DNA of 64,000 bases, taken from the sequence record PX423614.1. One strand, written 5' to 3'. This document shows, in pieces, positions 2,423-40,610 of the stretch. Made by a program: the position numbers and the translations under genes. Positions within the stretch are counted from its first letter, which is position 1, and every line of letters begins with the position of its first letter. Under the pieces are notes generated by a model. The model did no database searches and had not been told where the DNA came from. It saw only the letters and a list, made by a program, of their open reading frames with translations. This DNA is from a phage.

Positions 2423-2455
2423 AGGCTAGATGTTTAGCCTTGCTCTTTAATAATT
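2423..2455 (+). promoter_or_regulatory. rrn-type antiterminator element (boxB-like hairpin + boxA-like TGCTCTTTAATAATT)
   Basis: hairpin AGGCTA...TAGCCT immediately followed by TGCTCTTTAATAATT, near-identical to the E. coli rrn boxA TGCTCTTTAACAATTTA. Confidence 0.5.
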
Positions 2456-2507
2456 CGATTAGTGTATCTTGATAAACTCCCAACCATGCCATAATGAGGA
2501 TTTATCA

Positions 2508-2708
2508 ATGAACGTGTATACCTTCTCAAGCAAAGACACGCAAATCACTTGCACTAGCATTAACGTTACTAACATGATTATGAGAATAGTCGGTAGTACG
2601 CTACAGCAAGCTAAAGAGATGATAGCCGATGCCGATAAAGGCAAATCTATCGCAGTGTTATCGCTGGTAAGTACGGATAAAGATTTAACCTTTAAGCGTA
2701 TGAACTAA
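2508..2708 (+). CDS. hypothetical small early protein (66 aa)
   Basis: GAGGA RBS before ATG 2508; in-frame within track ORF 2469-2708. Confidence 0.5.
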   Translation: MNVYTFSSKDTQITCTSINVTNMIMRIVGSTLQQAKEMIADADKGKSIAVLSLVSTDKDLTFKRMN

Positions 2709-2780
2709 GGTAAGGTAAGGTAAGGTTAGCGGCCTTAATGGTCGCTAGTTTATCAAGATGCATTAATCGAAAAATAGTTG

Positions 2781-2808
2781 TTGACACATCGAATCACTAT
2801 GATAAGAT
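2781..2808 (+). promoter_or_regulatory. sigma70-like early promoter with AT-rich upstream element
   Basis: TTGACA (2781-2786), 16-bp spacer, TGa + TAAGAT (2803-2808). Confidence 0.55.
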
Positions 2809-2840
2809 GTTCACACGGTCAGCGATGACATAAAACATCC

Positions 2841-2874
2841 GGCACTAAGTGCCCCGCTCTTTAATAATTTATCA
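2841..2874 (+). promoter_or_regulatory. rrn-type antiterminator element (hairpin + boxA-like CGCTCTTTAATAATTTATCA)
   Basis: hairpin GGCAC-taa-GTGCC then CGCTCTTTAATAATTTATCA; 18/20 identical to the rrn boxA region GCTCTTTAACAATTTATCA. Confidence 0.55.
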
Positions 2875-2939
2875 TCTTGCCCTTTCGCAAAGATTCACGC
2901 GAGATAAGGGAAAGAATTAAAAGAAGATGATAAAAAGAG

Positions 2940-2967
2940 TTGACAAGCTAACACGATGTGTTAAGCT
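2940..2967 (+). promoter_or_regulatory. sigma70-like early promoter with A-rich UP-like element
   Basis: TTGACA (2940-2945), 16-bp spacer, TGt + TAAGCT (2962-2967); A-rich tract upstream. Confidence 0.55.
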
Positions 2968-2981
2968 GAAAGTGTAGTAAC

Positions 2982-2997
2982 CGCTCTTTAAAAATAT
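2982..2997 (+). promoter_or_regulatory. boxA-like element CGCTCTTTAAAAATAT
   Basis: third copy of the CGCTCTTTAA core about 10 nt downstream of the predicted start site. Confidence 0.45.
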
Positions 2998-3097
2998 GAA
3001 TCAGAAAGTTAAGCGCAACCGCTTACAATCTTGTTAATCCAATACGCGATTAACTGGTCATTCGAAAGAATAGACGAGAAAAAGATTTAAAAAGTGG

Positions 3098-3126
3098 TTG
3101 ACACGCTAAACAGGATGATTCATAAT
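3098..3126 (+). promoter_or_regulatory. strong sigma70 consensus-like early promoter
   Basis: TTGACA (3098-3103), 17-bp spacer, CATAAT (3121-3126); A/T-rich upstream. Confidence 0.6.
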
Positions 3127-3207
3127 GAGCACTCACTAGGCAACTAGTGAAACGTGAAACCACGGCGAACGGTGGCGGGAAGTGAGAAAGCACTTCGATA
3201 GATTTAC

Positions 3208-3227
3208 CGCTCTTTAACAATTTAAAC
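3208..3227 (+). promoter_or_regulatory. rrn-type boxA-like element CGCTCTTTAACAATTTAAAC
   Basis: matches the rrn boxA core GCTCTTTAACAATTT exactly; preceded by hairpin CCACGGCGAACGGTGG. Confidence 0.55.
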
Positions 3228-3229
3228 TT

Positions 3230-4039
3230 CTTCCTATATCGGTTGAACATGGTGAGCAATAATAACCATTGCAAGCTATGCCAGATAAAACGATGTAAGG
3301 CGCTCTAGAGTATCAGAGGAAACCGCTTTACAATCCCTTACTGGAAACGACACCACTGATAAATGAAGTTATTGAGTACATGCAAGGCTTAAGCTAATCG
3401 CCTACGGTTAAAGGGTAGCGGCGGCGGTGCTAGTAAAGTGCTACAATAATAGACGTTTATCGGGGTAGTTAAGTCCGACGAATTAACGCTCAATAGCGAG
3501 CGGCGGGAGGGGGTTAAAGAATGGCAAATTGCTATTTAACAATAAGGTTTAAGCGTGAGTATTTACTAAGTGAGTGTTTTGATACACATCAATAGCGATG
3601 TGAGTACATAAACATGTAGTGTAGTAAATCGTGAGAGAGATAATCAAACGCCAAAGTATCAGGCGGTCAATGACTCTTTACCATATGCTTTCCCATAGTA
3701 GGCGATAAGCAGGTTTAGAGAGTTGATATAAAAGGGTATCACGAAGCGAAAGCAAAGTAAATAGTAATGCCATCGGCTAGAAATTTAGCTAATTAGAGAT
3801 GGACGCGCTTGCCTTATTGTGATGATTGATCATCGCTGGCAAATCGGCTTTGTTTATAGCGATTAGTTAAATCCACCAGATGAAACATCACGGCAAGTTA
3901 GGCGGCAAGGTTAACTCCTGATAAGACCGCCTGATTTACCACTGGTTACTAGTAGTTAGTGATTAGTGTTAAGTCATTGTGACTTGAATAGCTCATAGAG
4001 AGCGGCGCATAGTGCGTTTACAATTGAAAGGTGAATATC
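3230..4039 (+). other. ~800-nt untranslated leader / candidate non-coding RNA region downstream of tandem promoter-boxA modules
   Basis: no ORF of 60 aa or more on either strand in the track; recurring motif GC(G/T)TTTACAAT at about 3019, 3339 and 4011; GCGGCGG-rich segments. Confidence 0.35.
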
Positions 4040-6917: not shown

Positions 6918-7118
6918 TTCATAGGTGCCAAGATTGACAAACTAAATTTCCTTATAAATCACACACTTATGATTTTCTCTGTAAAAAGTGGAAGTGATTT
7001 GGGACCAGAGGTAATGACTGTATATAGACCTCTGAAAATTATTGATAGAAATTAAGTTTAGAAATAATAAATTCTAAATAATATTTCTTATAATATCTTA
7101 CTTTAAGAGGATAAAGAT

Positions 7119-7424
7119 ATGACTTTAGAGGTTTATAAATTCCTTCTCGTACTCACTGTAACGATCTCTACTCTGGGATTTATTGCTTTAAGTAATAAGT
7201 CAGCAAGCTGGAAGCGTCGTTATGAGTTCCTTCTTAAGCAAGAGGAAGTCTTTAATGCTGATGTTCGTTCCAAACTGTTCAAAATGCAGGAGCAAATTGA
7301 AGCACGTAACGATCGTTTGGCTTCTTTGGGTTGGGAGATTAAGCGTATTCAAGATCTCAATAAGCAACTCACTGAAGAAATTAAACGCCAGAATGAGGAA
7401 ACAGAGGATGCGCTCAAAGGTTAA
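7119..7424 (+). CDS. membrane-anchored coiled-coil protein
   Basis: N-terminal hydrophobic helix then charged coiled-coil-like sequence; RBS AAGAGG. Confidence 0.5.
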   Translation: MTLEVYKFLLVLTVTISTLGFIALSNKSASWKRRYEFLLKQEEVFNADVRSKLFKMQEQIEARNDRLASLGWEIKRIQDLNKQLTEEIKRQNEETEDALKG

Positions 7425-7584
7425 GTTTACCACTGGTAACACTGTCCGCCTTGTTGGCGGTACTCAAACAGGTGTTATTCGTCGGAGAACAACGATTGAT
7501 GGTGTTCTCTGTTATCTTGTTCAGTGGAATGGTGAGTCTTCTCCTTCCTTCGAACGTCGTACTGATTTGGTGCTAGTCAAATGA
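7408..7584 (+). CDS. small protein (58 aa)
   Basis: ATG 7408 in frame of track ORF 7222-7584; GAGGA RBS; overlaps previous gene end. Confidence 0.4.
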   Translation: MRSKVKFTTGNTVRLVGGTQTGVIRRRTTIDGVLCYLVQWNGESSPSFERRTDLVLVK

Positions 7585-7814
7585 AGATGAACTTCGAAAT
7601 CATCCCAAAGGTTAAAGAAAAGCAGCTAATCTTCAGTGATCTCTCTAACGGGGATATTTTTAAATTTAAGAATGTTGATGCTGATACTTATCTTTGGATG
7701 AAAATTGACAAACGGTCTGCCATGAAGTTAAGTGACACTTCTGACATCACTGATGTATTTATCCATTCTGAAGTCTCTAAGTACAAATACAAAATTATCA
7801 TTGAGGGTAAGTGA
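7581..7814 (+). CDS. small early protein, member of GDxF paralog family
   Basis: shares a conserved L..G[DE].F motif (here LSNGDIF) with six other ORFs in 7.8-13.1 kb. Confidence 0.5.
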   Translation: MKMNFEIIPKVKEKQLIFSDLSNGDIFKFKNVDADTYLWMKIDKRSAMKLSDTSDITDVFIHSEVSKYKYKIIIEGK

Positions 7815-8044
7815 TGAAAATTAATCTCTTCTCTGTAGTTGTTACTAAAAAGCTCAGTGAGTTACGTCCGGGTGATGTATTCCGTTTACCGACTAACTCT
7901 GAAAATGTCTACCTAAAGACAGACACTAGCCTTAACGATATGCATCGTGTGGTTGGTCTTAGTCAGGGGACACTGTTCCAATTACAGGAAGACCATGAAG
8001 TTATCCCTGTACCTGATGTTCAAGTAACTCATATTGGTGGTTAA
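7811..8044 (+). CDS. small early protein, GDxF paralog family
   Basis: LRPGDVFRL...VIPVP motif pattern shared with paralogs. Confidence 0.55.
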   Translation: MMKINLFSVVVTKKLSELRPGDVFRLPTNSENVYLKTDTSLNDMHRVVGLSQGTLFQLQEDHEVIPVPDVQVTHIGG

Positions 8045-8269
8045 ATGAAGATTGATATTGATAATACCCCAGCGGTTGTAACTCTCGGTGATCTGAATTC
8101 GGGTGAAGTCTTCCAGTTTAACTACAACGAAACTCAATATTACATGCGTACTGCCTGTTATGGGGAAAACAAAAACTACTTTGTTAACCTCTCCACAGGT
8201 AAACGTGACTCTGAGTGTAAATCAACAGTGGTGCAGCGTGTACCTAATGTTCGACTGACCAATAAGTAA
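8045..8269 (+). CDS. small early protein, GDxF paralog family
   Basis: LNSGEVFQF pattern. Confidence 0.5.
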   Translation: MKIDIDNTPAVVTLGDLNSGEVFQFNYNETQYYMRTACYGENKNYFVNLSTGKRDSECKSTVVQRVPNVRLTNK

Positions 8270-8278
8270 CATCGACTT

Positions 8279-8306
8279 ATAGCCCTTGTGTTTATCAGAG
8301 GGCTAT
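8279..8306 (+). repeat. conserved hairpin ATAGCCCT...AGGGCTAT (copy 1 of a duplicated intergenic module)
   Basis: 8-bp stem; same hairpin at 13084-13111; both followed ~80 nt later by AACATCCG..GATAG. Confidence 0.5.
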
Positions 8307-8571
8307 GTGAGGATGTTCCTCAATTAACTATACTCTCAACGCCATATGGCTCACCGCTAGGGCGAGACTTGTCTCAAACATCCGGTGATAGACTAAAACC
8401 TGTTAATTTTCGAACAGCTTTCCGATATGTAGGGGTATGTATCGGTTTGGGATAGAGAACAATCTAGGGGTAGAGAGTTCTCGACAGTTAGTACAAGCGG
8501 AAGCCTTAACGTGTAGGGCTTCCCTTTATATTAACTGGCAAACCTGCCTCCACCAACAAAGAGAGAACGAT

Positions 8572-8712
8572 ATGAAGAAGACAACCAAACGTATGAACCG
8601 TCCTGAACGTATGGATGCAGTAGCAAATGGTGCTCTGAAGATTGAGTCTGCCATGCTTCGTCTGACAACTAACATCCGTAAGCGTCAAGGTGATTGGTTC
8701 TACGGTGGATAA
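8572..8712 (+). CDS. small basic protein (46 aa)
   Basis: AGAGAG RBS-like before ATG 8572; in frame of track ORF. Confidence 0.35.
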   Translation: MKKTTKRMNRPERMDAVANGALKIESAMLRLTTNIRKRQGDWFYGG

Positions 8713-8721
8713 TTAATAATG

Positions 8722-8754
8722 GGCTGCCCTTCGGGGTGGCCTTTGTTGTTTTAA
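8722..8754 (+). terminator. terminator-like hairpin with ttcg loop
   Basis: GGCTGCCCttcgGGGTGGCC followed by TTTGTTGTTTT. Confidence 0.5.
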
Positions 8755-8795
8755 TTAAGGGACAACTCTTACTTAAACTAACAAGAGAGGTTGAT

Positions 8796-9047
8796 ATGTT
8801 CAATCGTTTATTTGACCGTAAAGGTCGCACTGACATACTGATACCTTCTATCGGTGTGCCAGCTAAGTTCGGTGAGATACGTGCTGGTGATTTCTTCATG
8901 GAATCAGGTCGTCTTCATCTGAAGATCAACCTCGATCACGCTGTTGAAATCCTCAGTGATGATAAGCCAATCATCGGCACTTCGGTGTACAGTGCAAACC
9001 ATACTGTATTTGTTGTCAATGTTCAGATTGAGATTAAATCACCATGA
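8796..9047 (+). CDS. small early protein, GDxF paralog family
   Basis: AGAGAGG RBS; IRAGDFFM pattern. Confidence 0.5.
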   Translation: MFNRLFDRKGRTDILIPSIGVPAKFGEIRAGDFFMESGRLHLKINLDHAVEILSDDKPIIGTSVYSANHTVFVVNVQIEIKSP

Positions 9048-9301
9048 AGACAAACTTCCGAGCAGCAGTTATTACGAAAGTAATAGCAGTTGGTGATGTA
9101 ATGATGCAAGTTCCTCTGAACACTCGTTACATTGCCATTGACCGAATGGGTTATGTGTGGGCTTGGAAGTGGAAGCCTACTTACAATAAACTGTTCGACG
9201 AATACCAGTGCGCTGGGCCTTACATGCCAACGTTGGTTGGTGTGTATGAAGACGGTCCTTGTCGTACTCCTCAGTTAATTGAACTACCGGCGTGTGCTTA
9301 G
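9044..9301 (+). CDS. hypothetical protein
   Basis: ORF track; overlapping start/stop with neighbour. Confidence 0.45.
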   Translation: MKTNFRAAVITKVIAVGDVMMQVPLNTRYIAIDRMGYVWAWKWKPTYNKLFDEYQCAGPYMPTLVGVYEDGPCRTPQLIELPACA

Positions 9302-9302
9302 T

Positions 9303-9467
9303 ATGATTAAATGGTTCAAGCGTCTTGTGCATCTGCATGATTGGGTAATCCTTGAAAAATATACGCTGAAGATTACTGACGATCACGGTGGGACAAAGCA
9401 CAAAGGTCTTCGCTATATTATGCAGTGTAAAGTGTGTGGTCATGTTACCAAGCGTGACATGATCTAA
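9303..9467 (+). CDS. small Cys-containing protein, tandem paralog 1 (MIKWFKRL...)
   Basis: N-terminus MIKWFKRL and C-terminal CKVCGH shared with the next gene. Confidence 0.5.
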   Translation: MIKWFKRLVHLHDWVILEKYTLKITDDHGGTKHKGLRYIMQCKVCGHVTKRDMI

Positions 9468-9476
9468 GGGATCATT

Positions 9477-9641
9477 ATGATTAAATGGTTCAAGCGTCTC
9501 TTTCATTTCCATGAGTGGGAAGATCTTTCTACTTATGAATTGACGATCACAAATAAACTTACTGACAGAGAGCGACAAGGGTTGCGTATCTACTCTCGCT
9601 GTAAAGTGTGTGGTCTGCACAAGAAAACAGATCTGATCTAA
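9477..9641 (+). CDS. small Cys-containing protein, tandem paralog 2
   Basis: MIKWFKRLFHFHEW...CKVCGLHKKTDLI, paralog of 9303-9467. Confidence 0.5.
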   Translation: MIKWFKRLFHFHEWEDLSTYELTITNKLTDRERQGLRIYSRCKVCGLHKKTDLI

Positions 9642-9649
9642 GGGGTGTT

Positions 9650-9859
9650 ATGTTCTTTCGTAAGAAAAAGCCCGAAGATTCTGGATGTAAACACGAGTGG
9701 GTGATCACTGAAAACCTACACATCACTCACGCTAAAGATACTCCAGTAGAGAGAAAAGAGTCTCGTGTATCTCGTGTCTGTAAGCGCTGTTTGAAAATAG
9801 AACAGCATAAAGTTCCCGGTCATATCGGTCATGATGTGGCCTTGCGTATTTTCACTTAA
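9650..9859 (+). CDS. small Cys-containing protein, distant paralog 3
   Basis: CKHEWVITE...CKRCL pattern; ATG 9650. Confidence 0.4.
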   Translation: MFFRKKKPEDSGCKHEWVITENLHITHAKDTPVERKESRVSRVCKRCLKIEQHKVPGHIGHDVALRIFT

Positions 9860-9868
9860 ACAAATCCA

Positions 9869-9944
9869 GCACCCTTAGCTCAATGGACAGAGCAGCGACC
9901 TTCTAAGTCGTTGGTTACAGGTTCGAATCCTGTAGGGTGCACCA
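9869..9944 (+). tRNA. tRNA-Arg (anticodon UCU)
   Basis: cloverleaf: acceptor GCACCCT/AGGGTGC, D-stem GCTC/GAGC, anticodon stem-loop with TCT at positions 34-36, T-arm ACAGG-TTCGAAT-CCTGT, encoded 3' CCA. Confidence 0.85.
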
Positions 9945-9962
9945 ATCAACGTAGGAGGGTTT

Positions 9963-10103
9963 ATGACCTCTGAGTTTAATGAGTGGTTCGATGATATCTT
10001 TACTTCTCCTTTGTTCAGCGAAGAAGAAAGAGAAGAACTTAAAACCTACCTATGGATGGCTTGGCGAGATAGCCGCCGTAAGGCGCTTCAGGAGGGATCA
10101 TGA
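9963..10103 (+). CDS. small acidic protein (46 aa)
   Basis: strong AGGAGG RBS before ATG 9963; stop overlaps next start. Confidence 0.45.
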   Translation: MTSEFNEWFDDIFTSPLFSEEEREELKTYLWMAWRDSRRKALQEGS

Positions 10104-10426
10104 GCTGGGGTGGTGTAATTACCTTAACCTGTATCTTTATCGCCTGTGTAGCTCTTACAGGCTGTGTACAGCATCGTCCTGATGGATGGTGTGCATTATC
10201 TGTAGAAGGTGTCTGTGTTTCCCGTTGGCATAGTGGGGAGAAGGTTCCTAGCGGTGAAATTGATATGCGTTATGCTGGCGCTTCTTGTTCAAATGGCGGT
10301 GCTGTTGATGAGAAGGCTTATGCAGGGCGTGATATGGAGACACAAGGTGATTGGTCGCGTTATGACTTTATCTCCCGTGGTGTACAGTGTAGTGGCTCTG
10401 TGACAACAACAGGTAAGGAGTGGTGA
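10100..10426 (+). CDS. putative lipoprotein
   Basis: signal peptide with lipobox-like LTGC; Cys-rich mature part. Confidence 0.5.
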   Translation: MSWGGVITLTCIFIACVALTGCVQHRPDGWCALSVEGVCVSRWHSGEKVPSGEIDMRYAGASCSNGGAVDEKAYAGRDMETQGDWSRYDFISRGVQCSGSVTTTGKEW

Positions 10427-10427
10427 T

Positions 10428-10682
10428 ATGTCTGGTCATTATTCTGATACGAAAGCATTGCTTGAAACAGCAGCTAAGACTTCATGCCAACAGCAAGTAA
10501 AAATGTTGTTGGTTGATATTAACAATCTGCGCTGGCTTATTAAAGAAGGTCATCTTGGAAACGCTGCCTATTACAACGTTAAAGATATCCTTCGCCGCCA
10601 GCACTTCCTTATCCACGGAAACGTGGTCACTCGCAACTACCAATGGAACGGTCAATGGTTACAGCAGCGTATGTCCTCCTGA
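10428..10682 (+). CDS. hypothetical protein
   Basis: ORF track; AGGAG RBS. Confidence 0.5.
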   Translation: MSGHYSDTKALLETAAKTSCQQQVKMLLVDINNLRWLIKEGHLGNAAYYNVKDILRRQHFLIHGNVVTRNYQWNGQWLQQRMSS

Positions 10683-10909
10683 TTTATGTTATTGGTTGGT
10701 GGTTGGCAGCCATTGTAGTTAAATGGTGCTTCAAAACCAATACACTCTACAACTTCTTCCATTCCTCATGGAGTGGTAAGCCTGATGAATACTCTATTTG
10801 GACGGTGATATTCTTCTGGCCTTTTATGCTGATCTTTATCCTCTTCTTACCTTTACTTATGTTGATAGGTTGGGTAATGGATAAGGTGACAATCTTTGTT
10901 ACTAAGTAA
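10643..10909 (+). CDS. small integral membrane protein
   Basis: two to three hydrophobic helices; true start uncertain. Confidence 0.4.
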   Translation: MERSMVTAAYVLLIYVIGWWLAAIVVKWCFKTNTLYNFFHSSWSGKPDEYSIWTVIFFWPFMLIFILFLPLLMLIGWVMDKVTIFVTK

Positions 10910-11185
10910 TATCGTGAAGGATTCTTACGAGAGTCCTTTGAGATAGGACTTCAGATCTCCTATCAACTAACCGCTCAATGTTGAGCATTTTATTCACATA
11001 AGCCCCTCATGGGCTGGGTTTAATGCCGGTAAGCGTTTTACGCTATCCACTACAGCATCGGATTGTTAGGTCTTACATGCAATATTAATTAATAGGATAT
11101 GGGAGGATTCGTCCCCTCCCCCTATTTATGAAAGCATTCTTCCGAGAGTTCTCTCATAAATTGGTCCATAACTAAAGGTGGTAAA

Positions 11186-11440
11186 ATGAAAGTTAACAAA
11201 CCAGCCAGTAAGAACGCAATACCACTCAGCGCTCTGCGTCTTGGGGATTGCTTCATGTACCCTAACAGTGAAGATGGTGATTTGTACATCTTACTGTCTA
11301 CCGAGTTCTCAACTCGACTCTGCATCAAGGGCGCGGACGAGCATAGACTTGTAGCCTGTCTTAACACAGGCCGAGCGACAGCTCCTCGTAAAGATGTTGC
11401 TGTTATTCCTATTAAAGCTGAAGCAACTATTAAGGAGTAA
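11186..11440 (+). CDS. small early protein, GDxF paralog family
   Basis: LRLGDCFMY pattern; AAAGGTGG RBS. Confidence 0.55.
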   Translation: MKVNKPASKNAIPLSALRLGDCFMYPNSEDGDLYILLSTEFSTRLCIKGADEHRLVACLNTGRATAPRKDVAVIPIKAEATIKE

Positions 11441-11443
11441 GCA

Positions 11444-11707
11444 ATGGCTCTGACCATTAACAAAACTCGTATTGCGGATATTCCTCTAATGGTGGCAGGT
11501 GTTTCTATCGGTTCTTTCTTTACTTTGAAAGAAGATAAAGAACAAACCATTTACATGAAAGTGAACAAAAGCTCTAATGGTTGTGAATACCACCGAGCTG
11601 TGTCTATGCAGAGTGGATACGTTCGTAATATGGCATCCAATATGCCAGTTGGTGTTGTGTTTGAATCAGCAACTCTGGATTTAGTGGAGAAGATCAGTGA
11701 AACATAA
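11444..11707 (+). CDS. small early protein, divergent GDxF-family paralog
   Basis: similar length and hydrophobic pattern; AAGGAG RBS. Confidence 0.45.
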   Translation: MALTINKTRIADIPLMVAGVSIGSFFTLKEDKEQTIYMKVNKSSNGCEYHRAVSMQSGYVRNMASNMPVGVVFESATLDLVEKISET

Positions 11708-11954
11708 AGACCATCCAAAGTATGTATCGCTATTGGATGCAGCCCTTCTCTGCACGTACTGGCTCCTTATTGTTATTGGGGTTGTGCTAATGATATGTGG
11801 TGTCGTACAGTTCTTTATGTATCTGCAAAGCGTGTTAGATATCACATTAGCTAACACTATAATCCTTGCAATTCTCGGTATTATTGCTTTCTGTGTGATT
11901 GTCTTCTTCGTTTGGTTATCTATGAACGACGACTCTACACACACCTTCTATTGA
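11697..11954 (+). CDS. small integral membrane protein
   Basis: two long hydrophobic helices. Confidence 0.45.
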   Translation: MKHKDHPKYVSLLDAALLCTYWLLIVIGVVLMICGVVQFFMYLQSVLDITLANTIILAILGIIAFCVIVFFVWLSMNDDSTHTFY

Positions 11955-11967
11955 CAGGAGAGAATCA

Positions 11968-12084
11968 GTGAGAAAACGTGCCTACTCTGAAGAAGAAATG
12001 GTTAACCTGAAAGGATTCGGTCAACGACAGCCCGATGGTTCAGTTATCTGGTACATTAACGGACAGAAAAAGGCAAGTAAATAA
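11968..12084 (+). CDS. small protein (38 aa), GTG start
   Basis: AGGAG RBS before GTG 11968; followed by terminator-like hairpin. Confidence 0.3.
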   Translation: MRKRAYSEEEMVNLKGFGQRQPDGSVIWYINGQKKASK

Positions 12085-12152
12085 GCCCTCTTCTCTCCTC
12101 CTTTTAACTACTATGACGCCTCTCTTTTCGGCGCTGTTTTGGAGCTTCAAAA

Positions 12153-12566
12153 ATGTCTGGGAAATTCCCTAACGTAAGCAAGAAATTGGCTTACTTAACG
12201 TATAAAGAAAACATTGACCTTCTGGTCAAGCTATATCCGGCTTCATTCAACAAGCAATTCCCTCTTCCTTTGGAGCCTAATGTCCACAAGGAAATCGCCC
12301 GCAAGACTGGTTGGTCAGCGGAGAAAACAAGCATGGTGCTCAACATCTGGACTACTCGTATGGAGTATGTGATGATGGCCTGTAGCACTGGTAAACGCTT
12401 CAAGCTGCACTCTGTAGCTATGAAGATTCGTAGCCCTATTGACCCTGAGCCGATGGCTGGCTTTATTAGCCGTCTGAAATCTTTCCGTGATCGTGGTCGT
12501 GTAGTGAAATTCAAGCATGACTTCTCTTACAAGTTTGGATACGAAGCGTTCCAATTTGTTGTTTAA
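12153..12566 (+). CDS. ProQ/FinO-domain-like RNA-binding protein
   Basis: N-terminal region aligns by eye with the ProQ/FinO domain (LYPASF, PLPL, WTTRMEYVMMACSTGKRFKLHS versus ProQ FPHCF, PLKIGI, YTSSWRYL...G.RVDL). Confidence 0.4.
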   Translation: MSGKFPNVSKKLAYLTYKENIDLLVKLYPASFNKQFPLPLEPNVHKEIARKTGWSAEKTSMVLNIWTTRMEYVMMACSTGKRFKLHSVAMKIRSPIDPEPMAGFISRLKSFRDRGRVVKFKHDFSYKFGYEAFQFVV

Positions 12567-12593
12567 TCTCTCTTTAATGTAAGGTAATAAAGC

Positions 12594-12827
12594 ATGTCTA
12601 AAGTTAGCGCAATTGATGCCATCCGTCAGCCGTTCCAGTTCCAGTCTAAATCAACTCAGACCCACAGCGAACCTAAACAGATTCGTCTGGGCGGTACAGA
12701 GAAGACTGTATTCGATATTGCGAAAAATAAAAGCGTAACCATCGTCGAAGGCGGCGAACTGGTTAATGTTTCCCACCGTATTCGCACTGGCAAGACTGCC
12801 AAAGATCGTGCTAAGAAAGGTTTGTAA
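12594..12827 (+). CDS. hypothetical protein
   Basis: ORF track; RBS-like AAGG. Confidence 0.45.
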   Translation: MSKVSAIDAIRQPFQFQSKSTQTHSEPKQIRLGGTEKTVFDIAKNKSVTIVEGGELVNVSHRIRTGKTAKDRAKKGL

Positions 12828-13078
12828 TGCAAATTTCCAATAAAACACCTCCTGAGCCTACTGTTCAAGTAAAAGATATGACACCGGGAGATGTGTTTCG
12901 TTCGGTTGAATATCCGGGGGAATTCTTTATCCGAATCCCTTCTGCCTCTGTTGCTGGTATCGCTAAGCCGGTAACAGCAGTTCAGTTGAGCACAGGTCAT
13001 CTCTTCCGTTTAGAGATTGACATGGCAGTTATTCCTGTTCCGACAGCAATCCTCCGCTTCGACGGAGATACAGAGTAA
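12827..13078 (+). CDS. small early protein, GDxF paralog family
   Basis: MTPGDVFRS...VIPVP; closest paralog of 7811-8044. Confidence 0.55.
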   Translation: MQISNKTPPEPTVQVKDMTPGDVFRSVEYPGEFFIRIPSASVAGIAKPVTAVQLSTGHLFRLEIDMAVIPVPTAILRFDGDTE

Positions 13079-13083
13079 CATCT

Positions 13084-13111
13084 ATAGCCCTCGTGAGTAT
13101 CAGAGGGCTAT
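13084..13111 (+). repeat. conserved hairpin ATAGCCCTC...GAGGGCTAT (copy 2 of duplicated intergenic module)
   Basis: 9-bp stem; homologous to 8279-8306; followed by GCTAGGGAGAG and GAACATCCG..GATAG as in copy 1. Confidence 0.5.
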
Positions 13112-13319
13112 GTGAGCTATTCTGGCTCAACTAACCTAATCTTAATTTAATCTTTCCCGTATGGGGCCGATGCTAGGGAGAGGAATAATCCTCGAACATC
13201 CGTCGGATAGAATATTTTAAGAGCAGGTTATCCACAGATATTGGGTGATATCTATTTAATTGGCCTTAAAGCTTGGCTCTCTTATGAGAGTCCTTTTTTA
13301 AGTTCAAAGAAGAGGTTGT

Positions 13320-13487
13320 ATGGATAATAAGTTGAAAGCTAAATTCTTATTGGCAGCAATCTTTATTTGCTTAGCCACTGTGGGGTTTGTCAGGATGTAC
13401 TCTTTTGCATCTTGCGAGTTAAGCAAGAATAACAGAGGGTCTTACAACTGGCTAACCAATCAATGTGACAAACAGGAGAAGTTATGA
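13320..13487 (+). CDS. small membrane/secreted protein (55 aa)
   Basis: AAGAGG RBS; hydrophobic N-terminus; stop overlaps next ATG. Confidence 0.4.
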   Translation: MDNKLKAKFLLAAIFICLATVGFVRMYSFASCELSKNNRGSYNWLTNQCDKQEKL

Positions 13488-13846
13488 ACCTACGCCCCAT
13501 TAAAGGCCATGTGAACCTGTCTACGCTTCATAAAGTAGCAAATGATTTAGGTGGTATGGATGAGGAAGATCTGAAACAGCAACTGCTTTGGATTTCTCAT
13601 GGTATCAAGGCGGCAAAGGCCAAAATGGCTCGTGCACAAGGTAAACTAAAAGCGAATAAATATCTTATTCGCCGTCGTAATACCTTACCTCAGGATGTGG
13701 TAAGTTTAGCTTTATCAGGATATAAAGCAGCAGAGGTAGAGCTTCAGGAAGCAGAGTTTGAAAAAATGCGCTTCCAAGAGAACTATCGAAACTTCCGTAG
13801 TATTGACTACATTCGCAAATCTCTGAGCCTTTTGGTAGCAGAGTAA
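13484..13846 (+). CDS. hypothetical protein
   Basis: ORF track; AGGAG RBS. Confidence 0.5.
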   Translation: MNLRPIKGHVNLSTLHKVANDLGGMDEEDLKQQLLWISHGIKAAKAKMARAQGKLKANKYLIRRRNTLPQDVVSLALSGYKAAEVELQEAEFEKMRFQENYRNFRSIDYIRKSLSLLVAE

Positions 13847-13856
13847 AGAGGTAAAA

Positions 13857-15074
13857 ATGTTCCCTGTAACACTTCAAAGCTGGAAAGAATCAGAAGACGT
13901 TGTAACTGTTTGGCCTCCTTGTTATGGTTTCCTGAAAGCAGGTTACTATCAGGGTGGTGATTATGGTGAAGATGAAGACGGTGATCCTGACTACTACTGC
14001 ACATACGACAGCAACTACGGCTGGAATATCCGCATTAAGGTGTGGAGTAAAAATATGATGGTTCGTCAAGGCACTGCCGAAGAGAACGTTCTCGAAAACA
14101 TGATGCCTATGTCCGAAATCAAGTACATCTGGAACTCTGGTACACACCTTCCCGCTTATGGTGTAAAACGCTATGGTGATAAAGAGCCTATTGCCACTCA
14201 ATATTTCCGTGAAGGGGTGGAGAATGGAGACCCTCGTCCACCTTCCCACGTAGAAACATGGGCAGAAGAAAACAACCGTCCTGATATTACTGATCGCGCT
14301 GTAATGGAAGCTTTTGAAGCATTCATGGATAAAGATTCTGACTCATGTCTGGTGTGGCATGAAGCAGGATTCATGGGTGTTTGTACTGATGGTTGTCCTG
14401 CTGATCGCGCTCTGTTCTATCTGATGCTGAATCGCACATTCTATACAGATGATGAAAAATCTGCTGTGTATGAAATGTTGAACAAGATGTATAAGAAGGG
14501 CTGGTCTCCTTTAGCCTCTCTTGCATTCAGCCGACTGATCAACTCTTCAGTGGATGTGTTCGGTAACGAACGTGTTGCTTTAACAGGGAATGATTATGAT
14601 TCCTGTATCTTCCAAGCATCTCTGTATACAGTGGGTGTTGGCAGTACAATGGTTGAACCTCGCCAGACCAAGTGGCGACAGTGTGAATACACCGAAGGTG
14701 AAGGGCATCTTCGTGATGAAGACTTCCCCAGTCTGCTCTACCGTAGTGAAGGTGTGCGAGACTGTCGAGTGAATAACTCAATGTTCTTACCAATCCTTCT
14801 TCCTCAGTATTGCAATCTGCCGAATGGTGAACGTCCGGTCATCACAGAGAAGTCACTCTTGGTTGAATTTATCCGAGAAGTGGCTGAATCTGAAACATCT
14901 TTTGATAAAATTGTGTTCGGTTATAACTGGAACAATGAAACAGCTTCAGCTCGAAGCTACAACACGTATAACATTATCAGTAGTATGTCCAATGGACTGA
15001 CAGGTAGTAATTATACAGTACGTCCCTCAGAAGAGTGGGAAACCATTATGGAAAAATTATTCTTTAATAAATAG
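13857..15074 (+). CDS. hypothetical protein (405 aa), first gene of ligase cluster
   Basis: long ORF with no motif I recognise; acidic Gly-rich N-terminus; co-oriented and tightly linked with the ligase genes. Confidence 0.55.
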   Translation: MFPVTLQSWKESEDVVTVWPPCYGFLKAGYYQGGDYGEDEDGDPDYYCTYDSNYGWNIRIKVWSKNMMVRQGTAEENVLENMMPMSEIKYIWNSGTHLPAYGVKRYGDKEPIATQYFREGVENGDPRPPSHVETWAEENNRPDITDRAVMEAFEAFMDKDSDSCLVWHEAGFMGVCTDGCPADRALFYLMLNRTFYTDDEKSAVYEMLNKMYKKGWSPLASLAFSRLINSSVDVFGNERVALTGNDYDSCIFQASLYTVGVGSTMVEPRQTKWRQCEYTEGEGHLRDEDFPSLLYRSEGVRDCRVNNSMFLPILLPQYCNLPNGERPVITEKSLLVEFIREVAESETSFDKIVFGYNWNNETASARSYNTYNIISSMSNGLTGSNYTVRPSEEWETIMEKLFFNK

Positions 15075-24154: not shown

Positions 24155-25945
24155 ATGTCAAAGATCATTTTGGGAGACACAGGCTGTAAAGAGTGTATCT
24201 CTCATGGTCGTGATAAGACCCGCAATCACATGATTCTCTTCCGAAATGAAGAGTCCGGTGAGGAGTGGGGTTCATGTAACAGATGTGGTGCGTATGAAAT
24301 CTTCGAGAAAGGAATGACGCCCACTCCTAATGAAAAGAAAGAGCTGTCCCCTGAAGAACTCCGAGAAGTCTTAGACGATTGCTTAGAGCTTCCTCAGGGA
24401 GAGTTGACCCGTCGCTTAATTCCTAAAGCTGTATCTGAACGCTATGGATGCCGTATTGGTTTAAGTCAAACAGACGGTCAAACTCCTGACAGCTACTTCT
24501 TCCCTCGCGAACGTGATGGGAATATTGTTGGATATGAAGTAAAACTTCTAGACAGCAAGAAATTCTATTATGTAGGTAATGTGAAAGAAGCCGACTTATT
24601 TGGTATGGCTCAAGCACAACGTGGCGATGTTTACAATAAGAAGCTCTTCATCTTTGAAGACCCACTCTCTTGTATGTCTGGATTCCACGTACTTACTGCG
24701 TTCACAAACGCAACTAATATCAAACCTGCTTGTGTCTCTCTTCCGTTCGGTGCAGGTTCAATCTCTTCTGTGTTGTCAAGAAATCGTGATTTTATTAATG
24801 GTTTCGAGGAGATTGTACTCTGCATGGACAATGATGATGCAGGCGAGATTGCATTGACTAAAGGTCGTTCTCTGTACCCACATGTCAAGTTTGCAAGAAT
24901 TCCAAAAGGTACGTTTACTTACAACGGACAGGAAAAGGAAATCAAAGATGCAAACGACATGTTACTGGCAGGGAGAGGTCAAGAGCTTTTCAATAATCTG
25001 AAGTATTCAGCTAAGCGGGAATCTCCTGCTGGAGCTGTTACAGTTTTTGATTGTCTTGAAGACGCTCTGAAGAAAGCGGAATGGGGTATCCCTTATCCGT
25101 GGAAAACTCTCAATGACATGACCTTTGGTATTCGTTGGGGGGAGATGGTTGCAATCGGCGGTGGTGTTGGTTCAGGTAAAACCTTAATCGCACACGAACT
25201 GGTAGCATGGCTTTGCCTTGAGCATGGTTTTAATGGTGGTGGCTTCTTCTTGGAAGAGAAGGTAGGCATGTCTGTTAAGAACATTGCTGGCAAGTCTGCA
25301 TCTGTTCCATTTCACCGACCGGATGTTGAGTATGAAGAAAGTCAGCTACGAGATGAAGCACTTCGATACGCTGATAAGTTTTTCTTGTACGACAACTTTG
25401 GACAGAATGAGTGGGAAGACATTAAGCAGTGTATTCGCTTTTGGGTAGTTGAGAATCAATGTAAGTTTATCATCCTTGATAACATCACTGCATTGGTATC
25501 TCACTTAACTCCATCCGAAGTGAATACAGAAATCAGTAAGATTGCTTCAGAGCTTGCTGGTATGTGTAAGGAATTAGACTTCACTGCTTTTGTGTTATCT
25601 CACTTGAATGCTCCGGCGGGCGGTGCCCCTCACGAAGAAGGTGGTCAGGTTAAAGAAGTACAGTTTACTGGCTCACGTTCATTAATGCGCTGGTGTCAAT
25701 GTATTATCGGTTTCGAACGTAATAAACAAGCGGATGGGTTAGGTAAAAACTTGTCAATCATACGTCTGCTCAAAGAGCGTAACTATGGACAGACGGGGGT
25801 TTGCTATACCAAATATATTAACGAAACAGGTCGTCTTGTAGAACGAGAAGATCATGAAGTTGATGAAGATAATCCGTTTACAGTCACCAACGGAGAAGAT
25901 GCAGCTTCCTTACTTTCACAAGAAGGGGAGGCACGTCCGTGGTAA
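24155..25945 (+). CDS. bifunctional DNA primase/helicase (T7 gp4-like)
   Basis: N-terminal Cys4 zinc ribbon (CKEC...CNRC), primase-type acidic motif MDNDDAGE, Walker [10 protein letters not shown], Walker B IILDN. Confidence 0.8.
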
Positions 25946-40277: not shown

Positions 40278-40610
40278 AAGTTATTGTTTTAAGTTAAGTT
40301 TTCTTTTGATTTTAATAGAGAATCAAAGTCCTAGGAGTCCTCAACCTAAATCAAGGATTTCCTTAATTCTCTATTTTTATCTCGCAGGTGTCTCCTGCCC
40401 TTCGGTACTTGCAAGGGTTACAATGATTGCCCAATATACAAGCCTGCAATAGCTTTACTAGCTATACCATATATACATTACTACTTGTCATTATCTACTA
40501 CCAAAAAGGTTATAGTATAATAGAACCTTATCTGTATAAGTGTAATGTATATAGTATACAAACCGCTCAAAGAGAGCAACAATCTTAAATCTATATAAGG
40601 AAATATTAAT

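Follow-up and report, generated by a model that had tools for sequence, protein, structure and literature searches.

Two related intergenic regions in the early gene cluster

We analysed a 64,000-nucleotide stretch of phage DNA (record PX423614.1; the window in what follows), in which two related intergenic regions, termed module 1 (8270-8571) and module 2 (13079-13319), carry copies of the same element. Between 7 and 14 kb, the window shares 91-97% identity with phiEco32-like podophages of E. coli (PAS59, SU7, ECBP2, Bas86-88; Gordonclarkvirinae), and it belongs to a phiEco32-like coliphage of the Gordonclarkvirinae. Its start lies near the left genome end, and both modules are located within the rightward early gene cluster. 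In phages of the phiEco32 type, early genes are transcribed by the host RNA polymerase with sigma70, and middle and late genes with the phage sigma factor gp36, whose promoter is a single element, tAATGTAtA, positioned 6-8 nt upstream of the transcription start (PMC8948821, PMC4281155). Module 1 starts 10 nt downstream of the TAA stop codon (8267-8269, + strand) of gene 8045-8269, while module 2 follows the TAA stop codon (13076-13078, + strand) of gene 12827-13078; both genes encode members of a family of early proteins of ~75 amino acids. They had been proposed to be paralogues, which is borne out even though they are distant: direct comparison gives E = 0.011, and comparison via the neighbouring open reading frame (ORF) 7811-8044 gives 3e-8 and 2e-7.

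The initial annotation had described a series of short motifs recurring behind these genes, and all of them are present in both modules in the same order. The hairpin ATAGCCCT-N12-AGGGCTAT, termed H1, is found at 8279-8306 and 13084-13111 and nowhere else in the window, compared to 0.01 occurrences expected. Neither copy is followed by a T-run, and H1 is not an intrinsic terminator by definition. GCTAGGG(C/A)GAG lies at 8356-8366 and 13172-13182 (0.06 expected in the window), and AACATCCG at 8377-8384 and 13195-13202, followed by GATAG. The latter motif had been placed about 80 nt further on; it is indeed downstream of the hairpin, at a distance of about 70-85 nt from the hairpin end. The proposed duplication of a ~120-bp module is supported by pairwise alignment, with 75% column identity over about 130 nt, but the size has to be revised, as the whole intergenic region of 240-300 nt is conserved.

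One more site had been associated with the modules, a copy of AACATCCG at 2834 that precedes a GGCAC-TAA-GTGCC hairpin. Motif and hairpin are present, but the relation to the modules is weak and the count of this 8-mer is compatible with chance: the window contains five matches versus 1.2 expected, a number reached in 2 of 100 shuffles. The matches outside the two modules are those at 2834, at 8671 (within a gene) and at 25320 (complementary strand). The link of the modules to AACATCCGG at 2834 is a weak one.

Both modules fold into one covarying RNA structure

Modules 1 and 2 represent paralogous copies of a single structured RNA element, which is part of a long early polycistronic mRNA on the + strand. 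From 5' to 3', each copy consists of the hairpins H1 and H1b after the stop codon, a G-poor linker, a small hairpin H2, and a long hairpin in which an internal loop separates the stem P3 from the terminal hairpin H3. The linkers are free of G over 25-33 nt (8322-8340 in module 1, 13129-13155 in module 2). All parts given below are on the + strand.

In module 2, H1 (AUAGCCCUC/GAGGGCUAU, 13084-13111) and H1b (GAGC-UAUUCUG-GCUC, 13114-13128) are followed by a three-way-junction domain (13132-13230), which is found in the minimum free energy (MFE) fold, in the folds of homologues and by covariation. The helices P1 (UAACCU/AGGUUA, 13132-13137 and 13225-13230) and P2 (UCUUAA/UUAAGA, 13140-13145 and 13217-13222) enclose H2 (CCC-GUAU-GGG, 13156-13165) and the long hairpin (13167-13206), which is made up of the covarying P3 (CCGAUG/CGUCGG), the internal loop CUAGGGA/GAACAUC (13173-13179 and 13194-13200) and H3 (GAGGA-AUAA-UCCUC, 13180-13193). 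Next comes a hairpin with a G-rich loop (AGAUAU-UGGGUG-AUAUCU, 13236-13253), which is absent in 7-11-like phages, where AGGGU in the H1b loop takes its place. The region closes with an intrinsic terminator, GGCUCUC-UUAU-GAGAGUC plus U6 (13275-13299), 20 nt before the ATG at 13320. The terminator stem covaries in relatives (GACUCUU/GAGAGUC, GGCUCUG/CAGAGUC) and is annotated as a terminator in SU7, 4E8 and 7-11.

Module 1 contains H1 (AUAGCCCUU/GAGGGCUAU, 8279-8306; a 9-bp stem including one U.G pair, with no U-run), H1b (GAGGA-UGU-UCCUC, 8309-8321), H2 (GCC-AUAU-GGC, 8341-8350; 100% paired, two of three pairs compensatory) and the long hairpin (8351-8388), again with a covarying P3 (UCACCG/CGGUGA), the internal loop CUAGGGC/AAACAUC (8357-8363 and 8376-8382) and H3 (GAGAC-UU-GUCUC, 8364-8375). 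On the 3' side of this core, where module 2 has the G-rich-loop hairpin and the strong terminator, a pair of GGGG-tetraloop hairpins is followed by a long, variable one. These are H4 (CCGAUAUGUA-GGGG-UAUGUAUCGG, 8422-8445; 10 pairs with GC, GU and AU exchanges), H5 (GAGAACAAUCUA-GGGG-UAGAGAGUUCUC, 8455-8482; 12 pairs, 4 of them compensatory) and the composite H6 (8485-8537), in which CAGUU/AACUG closes a variable GGAAGCC/GGCUUCC stem (8499-8523) and many compensatory changes are seen. H6 scored weakly as terminator-like at 8499-8523, its U-rich tail being partly paired. A small hairpin, GCA-AACC-UGC (8538-8547), comes next, ahead of the ribosome-binding site (AGAGAGA) of the following gene and its ATG at 8572. 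Of the 59 pairs predicted in this 3' half, 12 are compensatory. The last long hairpin of module 1 is enlarged by an insertion of 56-59 nt in phiEco32, SU10, Paul and KBNP1711 (L002 7720-7800; L018, L019, L008), which is absent in the window, NJ01, MN05 and Bas93. Of the two copies, module 2 is the ancestral one.

The boxes that the initial annotation listed separately are parts of a single RNA secondary structure supported by covariation. GCTAGGGnGAG corresponds to the end of P3 (G), the 5' half of the internal loop (CUAGGGN) and the start of H3 (GAG), and AACATCCG to the 3' half of the loop (RAACAUC) and the start of the 3' strand of P3, P3' (CG). Because the motifs form one covarying RNA fold, an RNA-level binding or processing signal is plausible, and this would be our preferred reading of the motifs.

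Pairing in the core was evaluated in an ordinary, unbiased MAFFT alignment of 23 distinct copies, with 3' partners slid by 1-3 columns as controls. For H2, P3 and H3 together, 99.7% of the cells were paired versus 34-48% in the slid controls. Compensatory double changes were present in six of the 14 pairs, and none of 500 shuffles reached the observed covariation score. For the whole domain, 31 distinct matches were realigned to a covariance model of it (R2), so that this alignment leans towards the structure; with this bias, 95.8% of the cells in the three-way junction were paired versus 30-46% in the slid controls, 20 of 26 pairs had changed on both sides, and the P1/P2 helix was 92.8% paired with all 12 of its pairs changed on both sides. 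All such counts overstate the number of independent events because the copies share ancestry and represent about 6-7 lineages; the covariation is unusually clear for so small a phylogenetic depth. In searches with a covariance model of the core (R1), module 1 was matched at 8338-8392 (60.9 bits, E = 4e-13) and module 2 at 13153-13210 (76.3 bits); the corresponding R2 matches were 8320-8412 (E = 1.7e-6) and 13127-13236 (124.9 bits).

Single-sequence folding gave the same picture. The MFE fold of 13079-13305 (z = -3.9) contains H1, H1b, P1, P2, H2, the long hairpin, the G-rich-loop hairpin and the terminator in this order, and nine diverged module-2 homologues, folded singly, adopt an identical junction architecture. 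Across homologues, P2 changes from UCUUAA/UUAAGA to UCUUUU/AAAAGA, UUCUUUU/AAAAGAA or UCUUU/GAAGA. H1 keeps its pairing as AUAGCCCUC/GAGGGCUAU, AUAGCCUUC-UUCG-GAGGGCUAU, AUAGCCUUCC-CUCC-GGAGGGCUAU, AUAGCCUUCU/AGAAGGCUAU, AUAGCCUAC/GUGGGCUAU and, in CVT22, AAUGCCUUC/GAGGGCAUU (AAUGCC/GGCAUU); its loop may be UUCG or CUCC, and its stem exchanges TC/GA for AC/GU. Pairing is likewise kept among the variants of H1b (GAGGA/UCCUC, GAGC/GCUC, GAGU/ACUC, GAGUUA/UAACUC), H2 (CCC/GGG, GCC/GGC, GGC/GCC) and P3 (UCACCG/CGGUGA, CCGAUG/CGUCGG, UCGGUG/CGCCGA, ACACCG/CGGUGU).

U.G pairs are frequent or alternate with Watson-Crick pairs, as in P3, where 14 sequences have U.G and 9 have C-G at the same pair. Since these would be A.C mismatches on the complementary strand, it is the + strand that carries the fold; the U-run terminator and all genes lie on this strand as well. 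Folding energy alone, calculated for both strands, did not separate them. Altogether, the element is very probably a functional structured RNA on the + strand.

An invariant internal loop with a putative covarying non-canonical pair

In the 7x7 internal loop CUAGGGN/RAACAUC between P3 and H3, 13 of 14 nucleotides are invariant across copies. The positions N and R, which abut H3, covary: of 31 distinct cores, 17 have the combination (A,G), 12 have (C,A), two have (A,A) and none has (C,G). The combination has switched within Kuravirus module 2, within the 7-11 group and also between the two clades of module 1. From what is generally known of isosteric pairs, a non-Watson-Crick pair, such as a sheared pair, would give this pattern. 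The internal loop is constrained beyond base pairing, and an invariant loop borne on covarying stems would, as read from the alignment, be the signature of specific recognition. The K-turn, loop E and the 11-nt tetraloop receptor were considered as models, and by inspection the strand arrangement does not fit any of them.

Hairpins with GGGG tetraloops closed by UA/UA (UAGGGGUA) recur 3' of the core in module 1, in a Citrovirus-like contig and in Klebsiella phage Klyazma (window 8422-8445 and 8455-8482; L056 3195-3225; L063 2838-2868), and G-rich counterparts are seen in the UGGGUG loop of module 2 and in AGGGU of the 7-11 H1b loop. These GGGG or GGG hairpin loops may contact the internal loop in a tertiary fold or serve as a further site of binding.

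The element is conserved in three podophage families

Conservation in relatives, on which the initial annotation was made to depend, is extensive: about 100 phage records contain both intergenic regions over their entire length, with 80-99% identity. In phiEco32, the modules are flanked by genes 113/112 and 91/90. A module 2 with about 70% identity is shared by the Salmonella phages 7-11, SE131, SeKF_80 and pSal-SNUABM-01 (Grimontviridae), most proteins of the 7-11-like phages being highly diverged from those of phiEco32-type phages. There are two copies in Kuravirus and Suseptimavirus phages, one in 7-11-like Salmonella phages and one in the Citrovirus-like contig. R1 detects exactly the two copies at 8338-8392 and 13153-13210 in the 64-kb window and one copy in the 18 kb of 7-11 examined. 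The module always starts directly after a stop codon, and the upstream gene varies among phages; module 1 of Bas93 follows a phi32_116 homologue and module 2 of SU10 a phi32_92 homologue. The element is independent of the flanking genes, and it is more conserved than the flanking ORFs.

More distant copies were sought with the pattern CTAGGGNGAGN{3,14}CTCNAACATCC in IMG/VR, metagenomes and GTDB genomes. The scan returned further phiEco32-like and 7-11-like contigs, chance matches and one outlier, L056, a 48.7-kb contig binned with a Flavobacterium metagenome-assembled genome. Its proteins are nearest to those of Citrobacter phage CVT22 and other Citrovirus phages (Zobellviridae), and it scores 66.8 bits with R1. 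L056 has H1/H1b-like hairpins, H2 (CCC-AUAU-GGG), an identical internal loop CUAGGGC/AAACAUC (N/R = C/A) followed by a GGGG-loop hairpin, and a completely different P3 (AUAGCG/CGCUAU). Klyazma and CVT22 have an equivalent intergenic gap in which the architecture is kept and the internal loop has diverged: in Klyazma, UAUAGC...GGGCUAUGUG and the GGGG-loop hairpin are retained and the loop reads CUAGGAA/UCUCCAUC, and in CVT22 it reads CUAC/CUC. A number of pattern matches with R1 scores of at most 22 bits (L005, L013, L015, L025, L030-L032, L039, L042, L043, L048-L050, L053-L055, L057-L059) were judged to be due to chance because P3 complementarity or H1 was absent.

The element thus spans three families of tailed phages with podophage morphology, Mtkvariviridae, Grimontviridae and Zobellviridae. 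It was not found in Aeromonas phage APT65, which has a phi32_92-like gene, or in Erwinia phage Pecta. Similarity in E. coli was limited to one 34-nt stretch in 2 of 5,426 genomes, and the element is not host-derived.

Promoters, known RNA families and coding potential

The motifs had also been suggested to be promoters for the phage sigma factor. This suggestion does not hold, as the gp36 consensus TAATGTATA (PMC8948821) is absent from 8270-8571 and 13079-13319 even when one mismatch is allowed, and none of six promoter-like sites for sigma70 (-35/-10 hexamers with a 16-18 nt spacer) called between 7000 and 14000 falls inside a module. Both types of promoter were rejected on the basis of the motif scan and the promoter calls. 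A signal at the DNA level in a wider sense, which would include an operator for a DNA-binding protein, could draw on the palindromic nature of ATAGCCCT-N12-AGGGCTAT, on the conserved boxes, which could in principle serve as operator half-sites, and on TAGAnT after P3', which resembles a -10 element. We regard such a signal as very improbable, given that the stems vary with pairing kept, making use of U.G pairs that are meaningless in duplex DNA, and that hairpin loops are swapped for UUCG-type tetraloops. Elsewhere in the window, exact matches to TAATGTATA are located at 565, 33780 and 40543 on the + strand and at 40472 and 49774 on the - strand, and these are candidate gp36 middle/late promoters.

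Among known RNA families, Rfam 15 at the gathering threshold returned a tRNA as the sole match in the window; with E values of up to 10, the window and modules gave weak unrelated matches only and the core gave none. A tRNA- or tmRNA-like fold (ARAGORN, Rfam RF00005) was detected in the window only for tRNA-Arg(TCT) at 9869-9944, and a tRNA-like nature of the element was rejected. A resemblance of AACAUCC to ACANCCCC of the nadA (NAD+-I) riboswitch was considered and dropped, because nadA has a one-sided bulge on the opposite strand (PMC7297122) and no match to its Rfam model was obtained.

The small ORF 8288-8455 was rejected as coding, with indels of 1, 2, 4 and 7 nt and substitutions in paired stems across relatives; because the indels are not multiples of three, the element is non-coding. 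Within the modules, neither a lambda-type boxA (CGCUCUUA/GCUCUUUAA) beside a hairpin nor a boxB, the hairpin with a 5-bp stem and a 5-nt GNRA-like loop to which the arginine-rich N protein binds, was found, the loops of H2 and H3 having 4 nt and being variable. PHROG and Pfam scans of the neighbouring genes revealed no N-like protein among them. The element is not a nut site in the strict sense. No description of it was found in the accessible literature, a scope that leaves aside the primary transcription-mapping papers on phiEco32. As an RNA motif it is new, but its general kind is familiar, namely that of cis-regulatory or processing RNAs in early operons of phages.

Neighbouring genes and the early leader

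The ~75-amino-acid early protein family has six copies in the window (7581-8269, 11186-11707, 12827-13078) and the motif G-D/E-V-F ... L-S/T-G ... P. In PHROG and Pfam scans of the genes beside the modules, all PHROG matches of this family were of unknown function. Homologues upstream of a module are phiEco32 gp113, 7-11 gp112 and pSal gp118. Downstream, a cluster of amidoligase, COOH-NH2 ligase, glutamine amidotransferase and ATP-grasp genes is found a few kb 3' of the element in all three families, in Kuravirus, Moazamivirus and Citrovirus phages (window 13857 onward; L003 12631-17743; L061 6795-13564; L063 8327-15097). The tRNA-Arg gene (anticodon TCT, 9869-9944) lies between the two modules and is kept in relatives. 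A 75-nt direct repeat (9302-9376 and 9476-9550, 72% identity) forms the 5' ends of adjacent small ORFs (MIKWFKRL...), and a terminator-like hairpin with a U-rich tail, GGGCUGCCC-UUCG-GGGUGGCC (8721-8742), directly follows the first gene 3' of module 1.

Four strong sigma70-type early promoters are located at about 2355, 2782, 2940 and 3098. The rrn-type boxA-like sequence GCTCTTTAA occurs only at 2442, 2856, 2983 and 3209, each copy within about 60-110 nt 3' of an early promoter. The same arrangement of promoter and boxA is present in SU7, phiEco32, SU10, Paul, MN05 and Bas93, and this array in the leader suggests, at the sequence level, Nus-factor antitermination of early transcripts. One boxA copy is directly preceded by AAACATCC in phiEco32, SU10 and Paul and by AAAAATCC in Bas93; leader sites with AAACATCC are window 2834-2864, L002 1345-1375, L018 1875-1905 and L019 1935-1965. 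In the window and SU7, the GGCAC-TAA-GTGCC hairpin is inserted between AAACATCC and boxA. About 800 nt 3' of the promoter cluster (3230-4030) contain no convincing ORF and could hold more non-coding RNA.

Possible functions in the early transcript

The element probably controls the fate of the early transcript at a gene boundary. By analogy with known phage signals, we tentatively favour a signal in the RNA that acts in cis, sets terminator read-through and has the elongation complex or a protein of phage or host as its binding partner. The element would act in cis and at the RNA level. Its invariant loop, displayed on covarying stems, would be recognised by a trans-acting factor, either the elongating RNA polymerase or its Nus complex, or a phage early protein, and recognition would decide the fate of the transcript at the gene boundary. 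The likeliest effect would be read-through of the terminator directly downstream, in the logic of lambda nutR and HK022 putR, which are also placed between stop codon and terminator; a stable 3' end for the upstream message may be a second effect. Early transcription of 7-11 is confined to promoters upstream of gene 151, and the resulting polycistronic RNAs extend over nearly half the genome (PMC8948821). Because early transcripts start this far upstream and extend so far, the terminator after the module (7-11 genes 112/111) must be passed. Proximity of AAACAUCC to an rrn-type boxA in the early leader was also counted in favour of the read-through proposal.

Several observations weigh against this proposal. 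In module 1 the tail of the last hairpin is paired, which leaves this copy without a convincing terminator, and other terminator-like hairpins of the operon (8721-8742, 11101-11120 and those annotated in SU7) have no module. The boxA elements of the early leader could already make the polymerase resistant to termination, and the modules contain neither a boxA nor an N-type boxB hairpin. The GGGG loops and the three-way junction fit a self-contained riboswitch or ribozyme fold at least as well as a protein site, and the covariation comes from about 6-7 lineages.

Among the rival explanations, a trans-acting stable non-coding RNA cut from the early transcript, such as a small RNA or a sponge or decoy for a host or phage factor, would account for the compact, heavily structured domain between hairpins, for its independence from neighbouring genes and for a conservation above that of the flanking ORFs. 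H1 and H1b would shield the upstream message, the G-poor linker, whose G-free stretches (8322-8340, 13129-13155) resemble RNase E entry sites, would be cleaved, and the terminator or the last hairpin would provide the 3' end; module 2 does end in a terminator with U6, the usual form of small RNAs derived from 3' untranslated regions. We nevertheless consider such an RNA unlikely, as promoter calls from 7000 to 14000 gave no promoter of its own, the linker of module 2 is paired as P1/P2 in the supported fold, module 1 lacks a clear 3' end, and there is neither a known complementary target nor a homologue in 5,426 E. coli genomes. A processing or stability signal like the T7 early RNase III sites, where a host nuclease would cut the long hairpin or the linker, splitting the mRNA and leaving protective hairpins, appears rather unlikely. 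It would fit the paralogous copies in intergenic positions of an early operon under host RNA polymerase, the hairpin with its central internal loop and some 18 stacked layers, and an H1 that lies directly after stop codons, lacks a U-run and has UUCG-type loops in relatives. RNase III and RNase E, on the other hand, need neither 13 invariant loop nucleotides nor a covarying non-canonical pair or an enclosing junction, and P3 and H3 together provide only 10-11 Watson-Crick pairs.

A riboswitch of a new class or a self-cleaving ribozyme is improbable in our estimate. In this case, the junction, the invariant loop and the G-rich loops would form a tertiary pocket, and the downstream cluster of amidoligase, amidotransferase and COOH-NH2 ligase genes would have its expression platform in module 2 and the terminator there. 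For a riboswitch, a terminator placed after a three-way junction is a classic arrangement, the most conserved nucleotides are in loops, and the enzyme cluster lies downstream in Kuravirus, Moazamivirus and Citrovirus phages alike. Against this, inspection by eye yielded no conserved antiterminator pairing between domain and terminator; the alternative pairing of P2' with the 5' arm of the terminator amounts to only 4-5 bp and is not kept in 7-11 or pSal. The immediate downstream genes vary (small membrane protein, endolysin, unknown ORFs), module 1 precedes unrelated small genes, and Rfam riboswitch and ribozyme models are unmatched, nadA included despite the ACANCCCC-like motif. It is somewhat unlikely, in a broader sense, that the element founds a new class of structured phage RNA with a defined tertiary fold in three podophage families, with the loop as a receptor or binding pocket that possibly docks the GGGG/GGG loops, and with put-like, protein-free reprogramming of RNA polymerase, ligand sensing or self-cleavage as its activity.

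The phiEco32 and 7-11 group serves as a model for control of host RNA polymerase through an own sigma factor and the inhibitor gp79, and it includes many therapy candidates. We know of no explanation for the passage of its 30-40 kb early transcripts through internal terminators. For this passage, the element is a concrete candidate, being a covariation-supported RNA exactly at such boundaries. Should the element act on RNA polymerase or bind a ligand, it would be a new RNA class beside nut, put and EAR, a very short list; if it is merely a processing or stability signal, it would still be a useful annotation for about 100 genomes, in which parts of it are now called hypothetical proteins.

Comparison with known systems

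Irregular hairpins of about 20 bp with a central internal loop are typical of RNase III sites of the T7 kind. The T7 sites R0.3-R1.3 resemble the element, by established knowledge, in that paralogous hairpins, each with an internal loop at its centre, lie between the genes of an early polycistronic mRNA, and in leaving a hairpin at the 3' end of the upstream message. The duplex of the element is much shorter (about 18 layers, 10-11 Watson-Crick pairs), and its loop, unlike theirs, is invariant across phage families, contains a putative covarying non-canonical pair and is placed within a junction. With the repeated intergenic PeSL cassettes of T4-type phages, which bound variable small early genes, it has in common that the module stays while its neighbours change. 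However, PeSL cassettes consist of an early promoter and a simple stem-loop, whereas the element is a promoter-free, complex fold supported by covariation.

Transcriptional riboswitches are similar in their junction fold, in having the most conserved nucleotides in loops and in the intrinsic terminator that follows, but the element is not tied to particular genes, and an antiterminator alternative is not evident. The likeness of its AACAUCC to the nadA bulge ACANCCCC is superficial; the nadA bulge is one-sided and lies on the 5' strand (PMC7297122), and the Rfam nadA model does not match the element.

Antitermination signals offer further parallels. Like lambda nutR and nutL, the sites of N-dependent antitermination, the modules are early-operon RNA signals under host RNA polymerase with two paralogous copies per genome, and like nutR, one copy has an early-gene stop codon before it and a terminator behind it, with conserved sequence on or beside a hairpin. 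In contrast to nut, the modules have no boxA, GCTCTTTAA occurring in the window only at 2442-3209, and no 15-nt boxB with a GNRA-like loop; the 7x7 internal loop, set in a three-way junction, would be the recognition element instead. In HK022, put RNA suppresses termination independently of protein factors by binding to the beta' zinc-binding domain of RNA polymerase. Similar to the element, putL and putR are two related copies of adjacent stem-loops with bulges or internal loops, situated downstream of early promoters and upstream of early-operon terminators. The put RNAs act in cis on E. coli RNA polymerase and need no dedicated protein (PMC9378689). They comprise about 70 nt with two stems, a V shape and a short triplex, compared to about 100 nt, a three-way junction and extra flanking hairpins in the element. 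The element, too, has two copies per genome, with H2 adjacent to the long hairpin, and the likeness described here is one of architecture.

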